Positions 689 to 50,155 of a stretch of 64,000 nucleotides of DNA are shown in pieces. This DNA is from a virus, in IMG/VR virus record IMGVR_UViG_3300045988_126062. The stretch is one strand, 5' to 3'. Below the pieces are notes generated by a model, which did no database searches, was not told the origin of the DNA, and saw only the letters and a program-made list of their open reading frames with translations. Made by a program: the position numbers and the translations under genes. Numbering within the stretch: position 1 is the first letter of the stretch; every line of letters starts with the position of its first letter.

Positions 689-1864
689 TTATACGGAAAT
701 CCGTACCGGGTTCCACCAAAACCCTCTACCTTTTGGTAACATCGTTACATCAAAGGATTCTTTTTCTGATTTTCTAATGATGTTAAAAGCACCATTGATA
801 TCAGCATTGATGATCTTACCAAACGAGGTTTTAAACAATCCTCGTTTGATTCTTCTTCCTTTGTAAGATTCATGTTTGCAAATCCGTTCATTATCTAAAA
901 AGCTACATTTTGAAGTATAAGATTCTTCAACGATCTTAACATTGATTCCTTCTAATGTAGCTTTATAAGATATCATTGAGATAAACATATTAAAAGGAAT
1001 AGATACAAAGTTCTGATTATTACGTTTTCCGATATTGATCTCTTGTTTCCAGCATTTGTTATGACCGATTATGATCGTATTAATACCATTGGAAACTACA
1101 TGATTAACCAATATCCTACTTGCCTTATGAAGATAATCTTTGATCTTGTTATTCCTTTTGTTGGTTAATGACCTGATTTGTTTTGAAATTTGTTTGTTAT
1201 CTTTTAATTTAGATTTTAAGAATGCTAATCTTTTATTATAATATTGGTTGATAGACTTCAGTGGTCTACCATTGATGATAAAACAAGAGCCATTGTTTGA
1301 AACACAAGAAGCTAAATTATCTAATCCTATGTCGATACCAAGATAGTTTCCATTGTCAGACATAAGATTCTTTTCCTTCTTGTTGTAAACTATTTCAAGA
1401 ACAATATACCCATTCTTAGGAATGAATCTAAGTTGCTGAATATTTTGTTTATTGGTTCTTGTTGTAAAAGAAAACTGTTTTGGTAACTTAACAACACCTT
1501 GTTTTATCCATTTTTGAGAAAAAGATGCAGTCGTAAAAACAGCAGGAAACAAACCACCTTTGTTAAGATACTTAGGCATTCTTACTTCCTCGGAATACTC
1601 ACCTCTGTTCCTTTTATTTAGAAGATTGAAGAAAGATTTGAAGTTTCTATCAACCATCATCAACACTTGTTGAGCAACTGGTGCTGGTAAAGCACGATAG
1701 TCAACATCATTTTCTGCTCTTAGTTTCTTTTCAAGAGAATAGTAGTTAAGATATTTGTATTTTACAGTATTATCATTCTTGTATTGGAAATAGTGTTGTC
1801 TAACAACATACAATCCTTTGTTGTATAAGTTTTTTACACTTATGCAATAGGTCATAAAGTTCAT
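689..1864 (-). CDS. tnpB: TnpB (IS200/IS605-family OrfB RNA-guided nuclease), 391 aa, apparently intact RuvC triad
   Basis: RuvC-I LGIDIGLDNLA, RuvC-II ESYTSKCS, RuvC-III NADINGAFNI; partial zinc finger (SKCS...CKH, second Cys pair missing); typical TnpB length. Confidence 0.85.
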   Translation of the reverse strand: MNFMTYCISVKNLYNKGLYVVRQHYFQYKNDNTVKYKYLNYYSLEKKLRAENDVDYRALPAPVAQQVLMMVDRNFKSFFNLLNKRNRGEYSEEVRMPKYLNKGGLFPAVFTTASFSQKWIKQGVVKLPKQFSFTTRTNKQNIQQLRFIPKNGYIVLEIVYNKKEKNLMSDNGNYLGIDIGLDNLASCVSNNGSCFIINGRPLKSINQYYNKRLAFLKSKLKDNKQISKQIRSLTNKRNNKIKDYLHKASRILVNHVVSNGINTIIIGHNKCWKQEINIGKRNNQNFVSIPFNMFISMISYKATLEGINVKIVEESYTSKCSFLDNERICKHESYKGRRIKRGLFKTSFGKIINADINGAFNIIRKSEKESFDVTMLPKGRGFWWNPVRISV

Positions 1865-3618: not shown

Positions 3619-3903
3619 GTGAGTATAGGTGCTGCCGTTAAAATATTTTATAAGATGAAAAAAGAAGAGATTCAAACTATTTTATACACAATCAAAGAAG
3701 GAGACAGTATTAAAATCAAAGTACAAGACAAAAGTGAAGAGATAAGACTGCGGGATCATGTAAGAAGAGTACAGAAATACGGATACAGGTTTTGTTTGTC
3801 TCATTTACATGATGGAATTTTCTATCTGGAGAAGTTGAAAGAAGGGGATAAGGATAAATACTATAGAGTAATAAACAGAGGAAATGGAAAGACCGGAGTA
3901 TAA
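3619..3903 (+). CDS. Hypothetical protein (94 aa)
   Basis: ORF track. Confidence 0.4.
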   Translation: MSIGAAVKIFYKMKKEEIQTILYTIKEGDSIKIKVQDKSEEIRLRDHVRRVQKYGYRFCLSHLHDGIFYLEKLKEGDKDKYYRVINRGNGKTGV

Positions 3904-16571: not shown

Positions 16572-16844
16572 ATGAATACAAAATTTGAAAACATGGCTTT
16601 GCTGAATATAGAAGACTACAATGAGCTTAAAGCTAAAGCCGAAGCAACAGATGAGCAAATAAAGAAACAAGCCGAAGAAATGGCTAAGCCTGAAGTTGTC
16701 ACATTAAAAGTGTGCTTTGATACATACGGATTATTATACAGGCCATATACTTGTGTTGATGTTGAAATACCATTCTATGATGATGAAAAAATCAGAGATA
16801 TGCTTAACAAAGCAAGTGCTGATATACAGATCATAATCTTATAA
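16572..16844 (+). CDS. Hypothetical protein (90 aa)
   Basis: ORF track. Confidence 0.4.
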   Translation: MNTKFENMALLNIEDYNELKAKAEATDEQIKKQAEEMAKPEVVTLKVCFDTYGLLYRPYTCVDVEIPFYDDEKIRDMLNKASADIQIIIL

Positions 16845-16882
16845 ACTCTTACAGAAAGACACATGATGGTGCATCTATAGGA

Positions 16883-17497
16883 TTGGATTTTGGCCTGAAA
16901 ACTTATCTAACTAAAAGCGATGGTAGCAAAATTGATTCTCCACTATTCTTCAAACAATATCAAAACAAGATTAGAAAACTAAACAAACGGATTTCTAATG
17001 CAAAGAAAGGATCCAACAATAGAAGAAGGAGACTGTTTGAACTCCAACAAACGTATCGTAAAATAAACGATCTTCGATCGGATTTTCAATGGGGATTAGC
17101 ACACCAGTTATGCAAACAATATGATTATATTTTTATTGAAGATCTAAACATTGAAGGAATGAAACGTTTGTGGGGAAAGAAGGTTTCCGATCTTAGTCAT
17201 TCTTCTTTTATTGACAAACTTACGTATGTTGCTTCAAAGTATGGAGTGATAGTACACAAGATTGACAAATGGTATCCTTCTTCCAAAACTTGCGAATGTG
17301 GCTGCATTAATAAAGGACTGTCGTTACGCGACCGCACGTGGGTATGCCCGTCGTGCGGAGCGGTAAACGACCGTGATGTTCTTGCAGCCCGTAATATACT
17401 TCGGAAGGGCATTTCCGAATTGGAGAGCAAGAGTAATTCCAGCGATAGCAATATCGGGGTTTCTTGCGTTTGTATCCAAGAATCCCATTTGCTTTAG
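16883..17497 (+). pseudogene. tnpB: 5'-truncated TnpB remnant (RuvC + zinc-finger C-terminal half only, 204 aa; the WED/REC N-terminal half is absent)
   Basis: GLDFGLK (RuvC-I) begins right after an in-frame stop; RuvC-II IEDLNIEGM; zinc finger CECGC...CPSCG; RuvC-III NDRDVLAARNI. Confidence 0.6.
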
Positions 17498-17563
17498 CGA
17501 TGGGAGTGTGTCAAGTTAAAAGATATCGGCATCGGTTTTAGAACCATAGAAGGTGCAACAGAG

Positions 17564-18062: not shown

Positions 18063-18224
18063 TCCAAAAAACAAACAAAATGGAAGAAAAAGAGATAAAA
18101 GAAGCTATGATTGAAGCCCTGACGCACTTAGAGGGGTGTAAGTATTTCGTGGCCACGATAGTAAATAATCGAGAATAATACATAACTCATACAAATCATA
18201 ACCAATTTGTATTGTATTATGCAT

Positions 18225-18463
18225 AATAGCCAAAAGCTATTCCGATTATTAGCCTAAGTGTTGAAACAAACACTACGTTATTTAAGAATAGATAGTTACC
18301 TACGGATATTTACCCAAGTCTGTAGCTCTAAGGTAGGTGATTAAACAGTTCTGGTATTCAGGAACAGTGTTGCTTACGAAAAACCTTAAATAACATTGGC
18401 GATGGGTACTAACAGAGTTTTACTCTGACTTATGTTGAATAAACATTAAAAACGTTTGTAGAT
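18225..18463 (+). ncRNA. IscB omega-RNA, copy A: variable guide-like segment (~18225-18246) plus conserved scaffold starting TATTAGCCTAAG at 18247 and running to the iscB start
   Basis: Directly upstream of an IscB gene; same scaffold found at 30020 and on the minus strand at 49345, with compensatory base changes in two stems. Confidence 0.65.
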
Positions 18464-19690
18464 ATGGTGTACGTACAAGACATAAATGGTAAACCTCTGA
18501 TGCCAACAACGAGGCATGGTAAGGTTAGGAGACTGCTTAAAGATAAAAAGGCAGTCGTTGTGAACCTATGTCCGTTTACCATCCGATTAACGTACGTAAC
18601 ATCTGATTACAAACAGGAAATTGTGTTAGGCGTTGATGCTGGAACTAAGCATGTTGGTTTATCAGCAACGACGAAAAGCAAAGAACTTTACAGCAGTGAA
18701 GTAATTCTTAGAAATGATATCGTAGATCTTTTGTCTACCAGAAGAGAGCTACGAAAAACAAGACGGAATAGATTGAGACATAGAAAACATCGTTTTAACA
18801 ATAGAATAAAAAGTAGGCGTCCCGGATGGACAGCACCTTCGGTGAAATACAAAGTAGACGCCCATATTCGTGTTATTGACAATGTATGTTCTATATTACC
18901 AATATCTCGTATTGTTATCGAAGTAGCTCAATTCGATACTCAAAAGATTAACAATCCTAATATATCAGGTAAAGAATATCAGGAGGGTGATCAACTTGGA
19001 TTTTGGAACGTTAGGGAATATGTTTTAGCAAGAGATGGACATAAATGCCAGCATTGCAAGGGAAAGTCAAAAGACCCAGTATTGAATGTTCATCATATTG
19101 AATCACGAAAGACAGGTGGAGATTCCCCATCTAATCTTATTACCTTATGTGAAACTTGTCATAAAGAATACCATAAAGGTAATATAGATTTAAAAATCAG
19201 AAGAGGCAAGTCGCTTCGCGACGCAGCCGTAATGGGAATAATGAAATGGAGATTGTATGAAGAACTAAAATCTAAATACGACAACATTTCTATGACTTTC
19301 GGTTATGTTACAAAATACAATAGGATTAAACATGGTATTGAAAAATCTCATGTTTTCGATGCATTTGTTATTTCTAAAAACTTTGATGCTATAAGGTTAG
19401 GATATTATTATAAAGTAAGATTAGTAAGAAGACATAATCGTCAGATCCATAAACAAAAGATTCCAAAAGGAGGAATCAAGAGGTTAAATCAATCTCCATT
19501 TGAAGTTTTTGGTTTCCGTTTGTTTGATAGGGTTATGTTTGAAAACAGTTATTACTTTATATTTGCAAGGCGTAAAACCGGTAGTTTTAATATTCGAGAT
19601 ATTGATGGTAAAAACCAAAGAGATATTACATACAAGAAATTGAAATTATCAAGGTGTAAACGCTTTATGGTACAAAAGGAAATGGATTGA
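18464..19690 (+). CDS. iscB: IscB RNA-guided nuclease (PLMP, RuvC-I, Arg-rich bridge helix, RuvC-II, HNH, RuvC-III), 408 aa
   Basis: PLMP motif; RuvC-I LGVDAGTKHVG; bridge helix RRELRKTRRNRLRHRKHRFNNR; RuvC-II IVIEVAQFD; HNH HKCQHCKG...NVHHIESRKTGGDSPSNLITLCETCHKEYH; RuvC-III HVFDAFVIS. Confidence 0.85.
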   Translation: MVYVQDINGKPLMPTTRHGKVRRLLKDKKAVVVNLCPFTIRLTYVTSDYKQEIVLGVDAGTKHVGLSATTKSKELYSSEVILRNDIVDLLSTRRELRKTRRNRLRHRKHRFNNRIKSRRPGWTAPSVKYKVDAHIRVIDNVCSILPISRIVIEVAQFDTQKINNPNISGKEYQEGDQLGFWNVREYVLARDGHKCQHCKGKSKDPVLNVHHIESRKTGGDSPSNLITLCETCHKEYHKGNIDLKIRRGKSLRDAAVMGIMKWRLYEELKSKYDNISMTFGYVTKYNRIKHGIEKSHVFDAFVISKNFDAIRLGYYYKVRLVRRHNRQIHKQKIPKGGIKRLNQSPFEVFGFRLFDRVMFENSYYFIFARRKTGSFNIRDIDGKNQRDITYKKLKLSRCKRFMVQKEMD

Positions 19691-19713
19691 TTAATTTGAA
19701 TAAAAATATAGAC

Positions 19714-20184
19714 ATGAATCGTTGGTTTGAAATCACAGTAAAAGCCGAGATTGATAATATCGAGAACGGCAAAAAAAAGAAAGTAACTGAAAAGTATTTA
19801 GTGGATGCCTTGTCTTACACAGAGGCAGAATCAAGATCGTTGGAGATCTTCAAGGATTTGTACAATTCTTTCGAGGTTGTAAAAATTAATCCTATTAAAG
19901 TGTCGGAAATCTTCTTCAACGGAGAAGCTGAGTACTGGTATAAGTGTAAGGTGAATTACATTACACTGGATGAAAAGAAAGGTAAAGAAAAGAAAACTCC
20001 ATGCTATATGTATATCCAGGCCGGCAATCCTAAGGATGCCGAAGCTGTGTTGACTAAAGGTATGCAGGGTACGTTAGGAGACTGGAATTGCGAGTCTATT
20101 GTTGAAACGAAGATTATTGACGTATTCAAATACGATCTTCAGAAGGGAGCTGAAAAATTAGGCGAGAAGAAGAGTGAAGAGTAA
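19714..20184 (+). CDS. Hypothetical protein (start moved to the ATG at 19714; the ORF-track start at 19687 is a TTG overlapping the iscB stop)
   Basis: ORF track with manual start choice. Confidence 0.5.
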   Translation: MNRWFEITVKAEIDNIENGKKKKVTEKYLVDALSYTEAESRSLEIFKDLYNSFEVVKINPIKVSEIFFNGEAEYWYKCKVNYITLDEKKGKEKKTPCYMYIQAGNPKDAEAVLTKGMQGTLGDWNCESIVETKIIDVFKYDLQKGAEKLGEKKSEE

Positions 20185-29830: not shown

Positions 29831-29999
29831 AGCAAAAGCAGCATTTATAGATTTCCTGCCGGCAGGGACAGTGCTTTACTAATTATAATATTTTTAACAT
29901 GGATTTTGGACAAGATTTAGAACCAGAAGAACTGACCGGGCATTATGATCGGTGTTATAACCCCAAATAGTATTAACCCAATATAATTCTATTATAAAA

Positions 30000-30268
30000 G
30001 TTTAATACATCTCTTTCAGAGATCGGGTTATTAGCCTAAGCCTTGAAACAGAGGCTACGTTATTTGAGAATAAATAGTTACCAAGGAATGTTTATCCAAG
30101 TTTCTTGCTCTAAGGATGGTGATTAAACAGGAGTAGTGTATTTGACGAAACAGTGTTGCCATTATATAAAACCTCTTATAACATTGGCGATGGGTACTTA
30201 CAGGAGAAATCATGACTTATCCCTAACGGGATTTACATCTACCAAGGAGACCGGAAGGTCTCCGAGGG
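30000..30268 (+). ncRNA. Orphan omega-RNA-like scaffold, copy B (no adjacent IscB): distinct 5' guide-like sequence, scaffold from 30020, 3' end replaced by GGAGACC-ggaa-GGTCTCC hairpin (30246-30263)
   Basis: Aligns with copies A and C over ~170 nt; stems retained through compensatory changes (GTGTT/AACAC vs GCCT/AGGC; CTAC/GTAG vs CAAG/CTTG). Confidence 0.6.
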
Positions 30269-30320
30269 GATGTATTAAAACATATGAATAGCTTTAAATA
30301 TATTTAATAGAATATGAGAT

Positions 30321-30668
30321 ATGGAATTGATTTTGAAACAGAAGAAGAGGAGGATGAAGAGTATGACTGATGAGGAATTTGCATTAGATAATAAGAAAAA
30401 GGTTGTTGTAAGAAAAAGAATATCCTATTTAAACAAAGGGGATAAAGTGTGGATCGTGTCTTCCGACGGGTATCTGCTACACACGGACGTGGTTAGAGCC
30501 GACCGAGGCCGATCTTATGTGGATATAGACGGGATACTGTATTGGAAACGTGGATTGGATGGCAAACATCGTAATCGTAACAACTACATGCAGTTCGCCA
30601 TGACACCAGAAGATGGTAAGAAGTATGTCGTATATTACCCGGAAGGATTTAAAGACGATAGCTTATGA
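30321..30668 (+). CDS. Hypothetical protein (115 aa)
   Basis: ORF track. Confidence 0.45.
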   Translation: MELILKQKKRRMKSMTDEEFALDNKKKVVVRKRISYLNKGDKVWIVSSDGYLLHTDVVRADRGRSYVDIDGILYWKRGLDGKHRNRNNYMQFAMTPEDGKKYVVYYPEGFKDDSL

Positions 30669-34378: not shown

Positions 34379-34415
34379 ATAATACGATACATATTTTTGT
34401 ATCGTATTATTTTTT
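34379..34415 (+). terminator. Rho-independent terminator: 12-bp stem ATAATACGATAC/GTATCGTATTAT, 8-nt loop, T6
   Basis: Read in sequence. Confidence 0.55.
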
Positions 34416-34429
34416 ATGTGTTATATTTT

Positions 34430-35164
34430 ATGAAAACAAATGTTACAATGGTATCAAAAGACCGAGAATTATTTGGCGTAATAATTAAGCAGGACACTAA
34501 AACTTCGTTTATGTCCTTAACAGACCTTCAGGAAGCCTATACGAAGAAGAGGGTTGAGATGGGGTGGAATGAAAAGAGAATAGAGAATATCCTATCTAAT
34601 AAGGAGAGTGCGGAACGTGTTTACTATATCCTTGAAAAACAAGGATATAAGATAGAATCAGGATTTCCTGGTTTTATACAATCTGTTGAAAAAGAGTCAC
34701 TTATAAAAGTGATGAAAAAAATGGGAGCTTATAAGACAATGGGTAGAGGAGAGAATAGGAGAACTATGTGTAATCCATATATATGGGTGCTTGTAGCTAT
34801 GGAACTAAACCCTATGTTGTATGCTGAGGTTGTTACGTGGTTAACAGATAAGCTTATCTTAAACCGAATAGAGGCAGGTGATAAATACAATGTCCTATCA
34901 AGAGCTATATCAAGATTTCCGGATGCCGATTACTCCAAGATGGCTAAAGGCTTAAATTGGATTGTATTTAATGAGCATGAAAGCATGATAAGAAATAGGG
35001 CTACACAGGAGCAGTTGAAAGAACTTGAAACCCTACAGTCTAATCTTGCATTCTGCATAGAGATGGGAACCATCTCTTCTTTCTCTAATTTAATGAACAT
35101 GATGAGATCTATATATGTAAAGAAATGGGGAGAAGAGGCTGTAACTTCTAAAAACGTAAAATAA
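34430..35164 (+). CDS. Hypothetical protein (start trimmed to the ATG at 34430, MKTNVTMVSKDRE...); possible N-terminal DNA-binding domain, not confirmed
   Basis: The ORF-track start at 34397 is a TTG inside the terminator hairpin. Confidence 0.5.
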   Translation: MKTNVTMVSKDRELFGVIIKQDTKTSFMSLTDLQEAYTKKRVEMGWNEKRIENILSNKESAERVYYILEKQGYKIESGFPGFIQSVEKESLIKVMKKMGAYKTMGRGENRRTMCNPYIWVLVAMELNPMLYAEVVTWLTDKLILNRIEAGDKYNVLSRAISRFPDADYSKMAKGLNWIVFNEHESMIRNRATQEQLKELETLQSNLAFCIEMGTISSFSNLMNMMRSIYVKKWGEEAVTSKNVK

Positions 35165-47561: not shown

Positions 47562-47867
47562 TTAATACAAATCTTCTGAATACAACTGTTCTCTAATGGC
47601 ACTCCTATCTACTACCATTTCTTGATTATTATTTCTAACAAGTTCAGACGCTACCTCTCTTGTTGAAAATCGGTTCTTGGTCGTCAAAAATCCTTGAACA
47701 CTGCGGTTTTTATGGGCAATACCATAAGCTGCAAACTGAGAAATGATAGAACAATGTCTCAATCCACAGAACACGGCGCCGGATGGTATATTGGTGGGCT
47801 GATGGGGACGCTTCTTGCCGTCCTGCACCCAGATGGCGGCGCATATTACTATTTCTTTATTATACAT
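47562..47867 (-). CDS. Hypothetical protein (101 aa)
   Basis: ORF track. Confidence 0.4.
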   Translation of the reverse strand: MYNKEIVICAAIWVQDGKKRPHQPTNIPSGAVFCGLRHCSIISQFAAYGIAHKNRSVQGFLTTKNRFSTREVASELVRNNNQEMVVDRSAIREQLYSEDLY

Positions 47868-47904
47868 GATACGTTTTTCTATTAAATTTATTAAATCTAT
47901 TCAT

Positions 47905-49143
47905 TTACTTTAATATAATCGGATGCCTCTTCCCTCTAATGAGTTTAAACTTTTTGCGTGAAACATCTTTTGAATTTTCTCCGTTGAAATCCCTGATATT
48001 GAAACTCCCTGATTTTCTCCTTCCATAAACAAAACATATTTTATTATTATACAACACTTTATCAAACAACCTAAAACCAAAAACCTCAAAAGGAGCTTGA
48101 TTGTTTTTCTTCTTTCCTCCTTTTAAAATTTTCATTTTATGTATTTGCCTATTATGCCTACGAATTAAACGTTTTAAATATTGACATCCGATTCGTTTCG
48201 CATTAATGTTCTTAGAAATGACAAACGCGTCGGATGTATGGGATTTTTCAATCCCGTATTTAATCCGATTATGTTTCGTAATGTAACCAAACGTCATAGA
48301 AACTCTGTCGTATCTGGATCTCAGTTCTTCATACAACTTCCATTTCATGATCCCCATTACGGCCGCGTCGCGGAGCGACGATCCCCGTTTGATCTTCAAA
48401 TCTATATTACCTTTATGGTATTCTTTGTGACAAGTTTCACATAAGGTAATAAGATTAGAAGGGGAATCACCTCCCGTTTTTCGGGATTCAAGATGATGGA
48501 CATTAAGGATCTTATCTTTTGACTTCCCTTTACAATACTGACATTTATGCCCATCCCTTGCTAAAACATACTCCCTTGTGTTCCAAAACTCAAGTTGATC
48601 ACCTTCCTGGTATTCTTTACCTAATATTTCAGGATTCTTAATCTTTTGAGTATCAAATTGAGCTACTTCAATAACAATACGAGATATTGGTAGTATAGAG
48701 CAAATATTTTCAATAACACGAATATGAGCGTCTACTTTGTATTTCACCGAAGGTGCTACCCATCCTGGACGCTTGCTTTTTATTCTATTATTGAAACGAG
48801 GTTTTCTATACCTCAACCTATTCCGTCTTGTTCTTCGTAGCTCCCTTCTGGTAGACAAAAGATCTACGATATCATTTCTAAGGATCACTTCACTACTGTA
48901 AAGTTCTTTGCTTTTCGTTGTAGCTGATAAACCAACATGTTTAGTACCAGCATCAACGCCTAACACGATTTCTTGTTTGTAATCAGATGTAACGTACATT
49001 AATTTGATGGTAAACGGACATAGGTTTACAACGATTGCCTTTTTGTCTTTAAGCAGTCTCCTTACCTTACCATGCCTCGTTGTAGGCATCATAGGTTTAC
49101 CATTTATATCCTGTACGTACACCATACTTACAAACGTTTTCAA
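47905..49143 (-). CDS. iscB: IscB RNA-guided nuclease, second copy (412 aa; about 90% identical to the copy at 18464; alternative start MVYVQ at 49122)
   Basis: Same PLMP, RuvC-I/II/III, bridge-helix and HNH motifs as copy 1; C-terminal ~25 aa diverge. Confidence 0.85.
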   Translation of the reverse strand: MKTFVSMVYVQDINGKPMMPTTRHGKVRRLLKDKKAIVVNLCPFTIKLMYVTSDYKQEIVLGVDAGTKHVGLSATTKSKELYSSEVILRNDIVDLLSTRRELRRTRRNRLRYRKPRFNNRIKSKRPGWVAPSVKYKVDAHIRVIENICSILPISRIVIEVAQFDTQKIKNPEILGKEYQEGDQLEFWNTREYVLARDGHKCQYCKGKSKDKILNVHHLESRKTGGDSPSNLITLCETCHKEYHKGNIDLKIKRGSSLRDAAVMGIMKWKLYEELRSRYDRVSMTFGYITKHNRIKYGIEKSHTSDAFVISKNINAKRIGCQYLKRLIRRHNRQIHKMKILKGGKKKNNQAPFEVFGFRLFDKVLYNNKICFVYGRRKSGSFNIRDFNGENSKDVSRKKFKLIRGKRHPIILK

Positions 49144-49368
49144 TGTTTATTCAACATAAGTCAGAGTAAAACTCTGTTAGTACCCATCGCCAATGTTATT
49201 TAAGGTTTTTCGTAAGCAACACTGTTTCGCAAATACACTACTCCTGTTTAATCACCCACCTTAGAGCTACAGACTTGGGCAAACATCCGTAGATAACTAT
49301 CTATTCTCAAATAACGTAGCCTTCGTTTCAAGGCTTAGGCTAATATCCGGACCATTTATGGTACATTA
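49144..49368 (-). ncRNA. IscB omega-RNA copy C (minus strand): scaffold 49345 down to 49144, guide-like segment ~49346-49368
   Basis: Reverse complement aligns with copies A and B; directly upstream of the iscB start. Confidence 0.65.
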
Positions 49369-49460
49369 AAACCTTATAATGAAATTATATTGTTTTAATG
49401 TTATTTCGGATATGAAAACAAATTCGCCACCGTATCTTTTATTAGCCAATTCTTCTACAG

Positions 49461-49793: not shown

Positions 49794-50155
49794 CCTGGTA
49801 TTGGGAAAAATAGGTTCAGATCTTGGGTAAAGATTCGAGCCAATTTTTAACATCTTTATACTTAGGGTCTTTGTCTATTCTATCTTTCAGTTCATGCAAT
49901 GCTGAGTCCATAACCGTATTCGGTACGCCAATCAACTCTCCTATTAAATACAATGGGGTTTTATTCGATTTAGATTCGTGTGCTATATTCATGTCAAAAA
50001 AAAGTTATGTGAAACAAACCGGCCACGGGTATTCTATTGCCCGCCGACCGGTATAATATTTTTATTCCTTTTTTTCCAAACGGGAAAAACGGGAATGCGG
50101 GAATCATATTTTTTACTATGGCTCCCGCACCACCGGAAGGACCTGGATCTGGATC

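Follow-up and report, generated by a model that had tools for sequence, protein, structure and literature searches.

What is the gene-sized unit at positions 47,905 to 49,368 of the 64,000-nucleotide (nt) IMG/VR virus record IMGVR_UViG_3300045988_126062 (the window, meaning that whole stretch), and why does a similar unit lie in the opposite orientation at 18.2-19.7 kb? The window comes from a ~150-kb human-gut phage. It is colinear with phage csAssE-Sib (OR575929.1; Caudoviricetes, from the human gut, 151 kb; hereafter Sib), to which it is 92 to 96% identical. Sib is its closest deposited phage, on which nothing relevant was found in the literature. We found that the window carries three IscB/omegaRNA insertion elements of the IS200/IS605 (ISC) kind, which are non-autonomous and independent of one another; two are full and one is a derivative, and Sib carries none of the three. 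They are termed copy A (type A, 18.2 kb, plus strand), copy B (type B, 48 kb, minus strand, the flagged segment) and copy C (omegaRNA only). An earlier note on this DNA had recognized copy B as a second IscB and omegaRNA unit inverted relative to copy A, and Pfam, PDB and Rfam matches bear this out, as does an inverted repeat pair of 1,283 nt at 83% identity reported by a repeat finder. For comparison, a protein-based scan of viral contigs in IMG/VR yielded 328 relatives, of which 79 loci were fetched and labeled L001 and so on.

The two full copies each encode an IscB protein.

18464..19690, plus strand: IscB-A coding sequence, 408 amino acids (aa), with Pfam RRXRR and HNH domains
47905..49125, minus strand: IscB-B coding sequence, 406 aa from the ATG; the open reading frame (ORF) reaches 49143, with TTG as an alternative upstream start

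Both proteins covered the full length of the RRXRR model (PF14239; E = 1.1e-59 for IscB-B and 1.8e-58 for IscB-A), which comprises the N-terminal PLMP region, the split RuvC and the arginine-rich bridge helix, and KPMMP/KPLMP motifs were visible in the translations. An HNH domain (PF01844; E = 5e-10) was present in both. Solved IscB structures in the PDB were matched at E = 1e-41 from a single sequence and 1.8e-64 with a 19-sequence profile. In the alignment to solved IscB, GVDAG, IEVAQF, NVHH and SHxxDA paired with the RuvC and HNH motifs, and the RuvC-I Asp, RuvC-II Glu, HNH His-His and RuvC-III His/Asp were all aligned. Residues D58, E153, H210, H211, H296 and D299 were invariant across 19 homologs, and the ratio of nonsynonymous to synonymous divergence (dN/dS) between IscB-A and IscB-B was 0.16 at a synonymous divergence of 0.76. 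Some related copies are decaying (L047, L014, L031, L053, L057 and L058); among them are a premature stop (335 or 393 aa) and a lost stop with read-through into the downstream gene (415-427 aa).

Each of the three elements also encodes an omegaRNA of the HEARO family (RF02033), and all three matches exceeded the gathering score of 83 bits.

18165..18413, plus strand: omegaRNA A scaffold; Rfam 106 bits (match 18198-18413); P1 stem AUAAUCG/CGAUUAU; fold z score -6.2
29957..30201, plus strand: omegaRNA C; Rfam 95 bits; P1 stem AUAACCC/GGGUUAU
49176..49413, minus strand: omegaRNA B scaffold (HEARO, RF02033); Rfam 89.1 bits, E = 1e-16; P1 stem AUAUCCG/CGGAUAU, which closes a 5' three-way junction

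OmegaRNAs A and B lie directly upstream of, and on the same strand as, their own IscB ORFs, and no IscB ORF follows omegaRNA C. When the upstream regions of related loci were aligned, several omegaRNA 5'-domain types were seen, and the sequence shared across sites always started with AT plus a type-specific pentamer. These first 7 nt pair with the 7 nt preceding an invariant TAGCC and form the P1 stem, which covaries across element types (the three pairs listed above and AUAAUCU/GGAUUAU). In all three window copies, the P1-closed three-way junction folded far better than shuffled controls (z scores from -4.9 to -6.2; -5.3 for the 5' domain of omegaRNA B), and the core helices held seven compensatory pairs. 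The Rfam match for omegaRNA A begins late, at 18198, through mis-registration, because the type-A 5' domain is longer.

The element boundaries were resolved by comparison with Sib and with the related loci.

18165..19713, plus strand: copy A element
19691..19713, plus strand: type-A 3' tail of 23 nt; the ATG of a DUF4494 gene comes next, at 19714
29957..30320, plus strand: copy C, a protein-less derivative of 364 bp that consists of omegaRNA C and, at its 3' end, a relative of the type-B tail; the ATG of a 115-aa gene follows directly at 30321
47868..49413, minus strand: copy B element
47868..47904, minus strand: type-B 3' tail, 37 nt, constant in length and sequence in type-B elements across sites and always followed by ATG
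47865..47867, minus strand: ATG that starts the 101-aa phage gene downstream of copy B; putative target and target-adjacent motif (TAM; CAT on the opposite strand)

Homology to Sib breaks off precisely at the omegaRNA start in copy B (49412/49413) and in copy A (18165). Copy A takes the place of 144 bp of Sib, and copy B of 1,246 bp that include a DUF2829 gene, a 91-aa ORF and part of a 72-aa ORF. The 364 bp of copy C are inserted cleanly, with a 2-nt AT ambiguity at the junction; the empty site reads GATCAGTGTT followed by ATGGAATTG, that is, GTGTT followed by ATGGAATTG. A copy C-type element occupied the same site in L022 and another site in L081. The repeat finder reported no terminal inverted repeats at the element ends. 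The insertions thus resemble IS200/IS605 (ISC) elements in two respects: they lie beside a short motif without target duplication or terminal inverted repeats, and the DNA encoding the guide is located beyond the transposon end and varies from one insertion site to the next. That the insertions are independent, as previously proposed, agrees with their absence from Sib and with the finding that the A and B sites are occupied or empty independently of each other in related phages.

Upstream of P1, the sequence differed from site to site, with ~35 distinct 5' flanks on the same P1 start. Taking the guide position from the family paradigm, we infer that the guide is ~16 nt of phage DNA just 5' of P1, and that each copy would carry a different guide derived from its site.

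18149..18164, plus strand: putative guide A, GTGGCCACGATAGTAA; Sib homology ends at 18165, and cross-site sharing among type-A elements begins only at ATAATCG
29941..29956, plus strand: putative guide C, CATTATGATCGGTGTT, 16 nt of flank beside a clean insertion relative to Sib
49414..49429, minus strand: putative guide B, TGGCGAATTTGTTTTC, 16 nt of phage flank directly 5' of P1; Sib homology reaches the junction

The earlier note had likewise assigned different guides to the copies, which holds insofar as the flanks differ, but the sequence it named as guide-like, CCATAAATGGTCCGGAT (49345-49361, minus strand), lies inside the omegaRNA 5' domain, where it comprises a small hairpin and the 3' strand of P1, and is scaffold. 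Its segment of 47905-49368 likewise covered part of an element that extends over 47868-49413, with the putative guide at 49414-49429, and the third HEARO element (29957-30320, plus strand) was absent from its account.

Several related loci showed small alterations at the guide-side junction. Nested deletions of 4 to 25 nt in the guide-encoding flank, flush with the element 5' end and not at an ATG, were seen in L065, L068 and L069 at the A site and in L008 and L010 at the B site. These five variants look like slippage or microhomology deletions, and they alter the guide without the element moving. L070 and L077 (A site) carried short partial duplications of the element 5' end at the junction (TAATTAATCGAGGATATT followed by AATCGAGG). 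In L006 (~3740-3776), the omegaRNA 5' domain was replaced by a perfect 18-nt fold-back, GGCTAATATCCGGACCAT / ATGGTCCGGATATTAGCC, which could be a palindromic repair scar or an assembly artifact.

The position of the insertions followed a simple rule. In every full-length element, the distance between the IscB stop and the 3' end was constant for the type (23 nt for type A and 37 nt for type B), and across the 79 related viral loci each element was followed without a gap by the ATG start codon of a phage gene in the same orientation. An ATG opening a phage ORF directly adjoined at least 14 distinct 3' junctions, with at least 14 different downstream genes. On the guide side, 16 of 17 distinct 5' junction flanks (17 being those for which an unoccupied counterpart was found) were followed by ATG in that counterpart, compared with a background of 2% of positions. 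At the copy-B site alone, nine 5' junctions corresponded to nine ATGs located 265 to 1,302 bp upstream of the start of the 101-aa gene; all three reading frames are represented among these ATGs, and just two of them are annotated as starts. Any ATG can therefore form the guide-side junction, but the one on the gene side is always a start codon, which would be expected if insertions survive only where they are non-disruptive.

These patterns fit ATG (CAT) as a putative target motif and TAM of the IS200/IS605 type. In ISGst5, IscB and TnpA both require TTCAT, the reverse complement of ATGAA, beside the element left end, and the guide-side end bears a close variant of this motif, which is not cut (Meers et al. 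2023, bioRxiv 10.1101/2023.03.14.532601). The counterparts in the window phage are ATG and ATA. Placement before start codons also answers why copies A and B are inverted. The genes of the window form two convergent arms, on the plus strand to ~38.5 kb and on the minus strand thereafter (by GC skew and ORF orientation), and each IscB copy is co-oriented with its neighbor genes; because insertion before start codons forces co-orientation with genes, two copies in the two arms come to face each other.

Unoccupied alleles were common among related phages. The 16-mer of guide B was followed by ATG in 116 of 119 related contigs drawn from IscB-unbiased samples, which is consistent with RNA-guided homing between phages, and no second ATG-flanked match to guide B was present in the window itself. 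At the B site, 43 of 59 unoccupied contigs with a resolvable downstream arrangement had no omegaRNA before the 101-aa gene. The unoccupied A site lacked an omegaRNA in all 62 contigs, with the DUF4494 start 180 nt downstream, and the A-site flank was followed by ATG in 41 of these 62 alleles. From these counts, both sites are polymorphic in the population. The A-site motif was mutated to ACG in the other 21 contigs (Sib and 20 others), 13 of which retained a perfect match to guide A, and the further variants AAG and ATA occurred in L013 at the B target and in Sib at the L007 junction. Such mutations in unoccupied alleles could reflect escape from cutting or plain lineage variation.

Outside this lineage, close copies were scarce. 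Among bacterial genomes (185,579 species representatives), one IscB match at 88% identity was found, on a phage-like contig, and the rest were at or below 59%; IscB homologs occurred in 32 of 50,697 deposited phage genomes. The 88% match, L082, lies on a 20-kb contig assigned to 'Vibrio olivae' (NZ_JBHMEP010000019.1) and is an IscB element of the L035 type; the contig also has a stretch 78% identical to window positions 34391-35004. This contig resembles one from a gut phage that ended up in a Vibrio assembly, possibly through contamination.

Taken as a whole, these observations are probably best explained by IscB/omegaRNA insertion elements that sit before start codons, take their guides from the flank, act in the manner of homing nucleases and acquire their junctions at ATGs. 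Under this explanation, the IscB-omegaRNA complex would cut DNA where a guide match is followed by ATG, an arrangement confined to genomes without the element at the junction in question. In the element's own copy, the guide match is followed by ATA, the start of the scaffold, which would protect that copy. The break would then be repaired from the element-bearing genome, and in mixed infections related phages would be converted, as in homing or marker exclusion. This "restorative homing" logic is established for the family (Meers et al. 2023, bioRxiv 10.1101/2023.03.14.532601; reviewed in PMC13565253); in the literature searched, it was not described for phage-borne IscB.

Several results weigh against this explanation. 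No TnpA (Y1_Tnp) was found among the ~85 ORFs of the window, nor within 4 kb of ~80 related loci when six-frame ORFs of 103 sequences were searched by phmmer with IS200/IS608 TnpA seeds. The gene-side ends of copies A and B (the left ends in the transposon convention) had no significant hairpin (z score +0.5), and precise-excision joints for A and B were absent from viral contigs. The C-terminal ~70 aa, where the TAM-reading part is expected, had no detectable similarity to solved IscBs. Because no TnpA was found, the elements are taken to be non-autonomous, which is reportedly the case for most ISC elements (PMC13565253). Their guide-side ends are strongly structured (z scores from -4.9 to -6.2), a structure that is also the omegaRNA, and the gene-side end of copy C has a hairpin (z score -2.7).

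A further part of the explanation concerns how guides arise. New junctions, and with them new guides, would form when the guide-side end is joined precisely to the base preceding an upstream ATG and the intervening DNA is deleted. HUH-transposase (TnpA) chemistry supplied in trans, in which the element end attacks a motif-cleaved site on the same strand, would fit this precise joining. Two other routes to flush 5' junctions were set aside as the main ones: AT microhomology alone would not place G next in 16 of 17 cases, and self-cleavage by IscB within the protospacer would not keep the flank up to the motif. The same product would also come from a two-step route, in which elements insert at each upstream ATG and the direct copies then recombine. 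None of the 79 loci, however, held the intermediate that this route calls for, in which the gene of the upstream ATG comes right after an element.

More tentatively, and with less than an even chance in our judgment, the IscB-omegaRNA units may be RNA-guided equivalents of free-standing homing endonuclease genes that spread between co-infecting phages without a resident transposase and that reprogram themselves, the guide-side end being re-joined before upstream ATGs, with deletion of 0.2 to 1.3 kb of dispensable genes, and the gene-side end staying fixed at the start codon. If this is true, each deletion would create a guide whose sole ATG-flanked match is the ancestral, undeleted allele, and every derived allele would be a gene drive against its ancestor.

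The rival with most in its favor holds that the units are weapons, kept since they destroy or convert the genomes of co-infecting competitors and benefit the carrier phage. The lineage (>80% identity) is abundant in viral contigs, with 328 relatives, and nearly absent from the 185,579 bacterial genomes; its genes show purifying selection, and a perfect ATG-flanked guide B target is present in 116 of 119 related contigs. Selfish homing, however, predicts all of these observations equally. The elements are also polymorphic among near-identical phages, as parasites would be (Sib has none), and some copies are truncated or fused (the decaying loci named above). We consider a role as a weapon rather unlikely.

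A second rival concerns recombination between the inverted copies. The earlier note had put their identity at ~90% and proposed that such segments could recombine and invert the DNA between them. Pairwise alignment over its own coordinates gave 81.8% identity at the DNA level (1,195 of 1,460 columns; 88% over the first 1,000 columns and 68.5% after), and the proteins were 81.5% identical (330 of 405 residues). Its observation of a diverged C terminus was confirmed: the last ~105 codons were 59% identical, against 90% for the rest. The C-terminal region is the part that differs most between types A and B, and no PDB match was found for the C-terminal 106 aa. Identity ran along a gradient from 97% at the omegaRNA and ORF start to ~62% at the 3' end, with a longest exact run of 85 bp and a ~100-bp stretch at 97%. 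Segment-wise comparison revealed two deeply diverged C-terminal modules, 63% identical between types, and in most loci the omegaRNA core and the first 450 nt of the ORF were equally similar to both window copies. Two chimeras at the B site, L018 and L025, joined a type-A 5' domain to a type-B body. Synonymous divergence between A and B was 0.30 over the first 100 codons and climbed to saturation over the last 100, with dN/dS staying near 0.1, a gradient that fits purifying selection on both iscB genes and past gene conversion at their 5' ends.

These results show that element copies recombine, and the visible products are mosaics, which imply gene conversion, rather than inversions. The proposal that the copies are recombination substrates thus stands for the mosaics and chimeras, but not for inversion of the ~28 kb between them. 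Several points favor inversion: the inverted repeat is real, with its 85-bp exact run and ~100-bp stretch at 97%; copies exchange sequence, as the homogenized N-terminal 450 nt and omegaRNA core and the chimeras L018 and L025 indicate; and gene orientation would stay co-directional in both arms. Against this, no discordant flanks were found at either site among ~45 related loci when 5' and 3' flanks were mapped to the window. The window is also colinear with Sib, a relative without the repeats, the arrangement is standard in a contig where both of these sites are occupied (L006 and L061), and overall identity is just 82%. That the ~1.5-kb copies recombine to yield genome isomers through inversion of this segment is therefore very unlikely. 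One inversion-like signal, in L013 (5' flank at 17.0-17.5 kb, 3' flank at 47.8 kb), was traced to a separate mobile module of 690 bp carrying a TnpB fragment.

It is scarcely plausible that the copies are inactive, decaying relics. The lack of a nearby transposase and the truncation of some related copies would suit this idea, but both window ORFs are full length with all catalytic residues, dN/dS is 0.16 despite a synonymous divergence of 0.76, and the omegaRNA helices have been kept through compensatory changes. The chance that copies A and B are an assembly duplication artifact, which the earlier note had allowed for, is negligible: 18% of positions differ between them, their flanks and C-terminal modules are not the same, and each recurs at its own site in many independent contigs.

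Other mobile or repeated sequences were observed in the window. A full-length TnpB of 391 aa (OrfB_IS605 and Cas12f1-like TNB domains; ORF 689-1864, minus strand) lies within a module of 1,348 bp at 643-1990 with ~25-bp terminal inverted repeats (GGTGATTATATAC). This module, at 92% identity, occurs in L003, L006, L018 and L021 at the equivalent of window position 49860, which is empty in the window. The 690-bp TnpB-fragment module lies at 16825-17514 and encodes a 204-aa C-terminal TnpB fragment (RuvC and TNB; ORF 16883-17497, plus strand); since it is found at other positions in L013 and L021, it appears to be mobile or recombining. Finally, the window starts with three tandem 51-nt direct repeats (1-153), of which the second and third are 84% and 73% identical to the first.

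One of the closest known systems is OgeuIscB (solved structures 7UTN and 7XHT). The window proteins share its domain order (PLMP, split RuvC, bridge helix, HNH), their catalytic residues align with it, and a HEARO-type omegaRNA lies upstream on the same strand. In contrast to OgeuIscB, with 496 aa, they have 406-408 aa, with low identity outside the catalytic cores and an unalignable C-terminal ~70 aa. The published OgeuIscB TAM is NWRRNA, which differs from the motif proposed for the window elements. Standalone omegaRNAs have reportedly been interpreted as protein-less IS200/IS605 derivatives. Copy C also resembles palindrome-associated transposable elements (PATEs; Meers et al. 2023, bioRxiv 10.1101/2023.03.14.532601) in having both element ends and a full omegaRNA, without an ORF, at two or more sites. 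It differs from them in residing in a phage, where it would need IscB-A or IscB-B in trans.

The T-even phages offer another comparison. Their free-standing homing endonucleases SegF, SegG and Mob are associated with intronless homing and marker exclusion (PMC13565253). Like these, the window elements place a nuclease gene between conserved phage genes, have their target in alleles without the element, and occupy slots that hold alternative cargo in relatives, copy B taking the place of 1.25 kb of Sib. Unlike SegF, SegG and Mob, where the protein recognizes the target, recognition here would lie with a flank-derived guide RNA and a 3-nt motif, and homing in the window lineage is putative.

A further close parallel is ISGst5 of Geobacillus stearothermophilus (IS200/IS605; Meers et al. 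2023, bioRxiv 10.1101/2023.03.14.532601). In both, the omegaRNA guide corresponds to flank DNA outside the transposon end, and the other end adjoins a short motif, which in ISGst5 is both transposase target and nuclease TAM (TTCAT) and here is ATG plus a variable base. In both, the element's own end bears a near-copy of the motif (the transposon-encoded motif, ATA here), which would prevent self-cutting. The window lineage differs in residing in phage genomes with no cognate TnpA found either in the window or within 4 kb of related loci, in a conserved motif of apparently 3 nt, and in surviving insertions that all lie directly before start codons. Its proteins are compact (406 aa) and may need the 3-nt motif alone, which would be of interest for genome editing if confirmed. 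Set beside these systems, the window elements are a known kind of multi-copy IscB/omegaRNA element, and the population genetics of the surrounding phage lineage is the more interesting lead: one lineage holds hundreds of close IscB copies with resolvable empty and occupied sites, which makes the movement of a transposase-less IscB, homing and competition between phages, and guide turnover testable.

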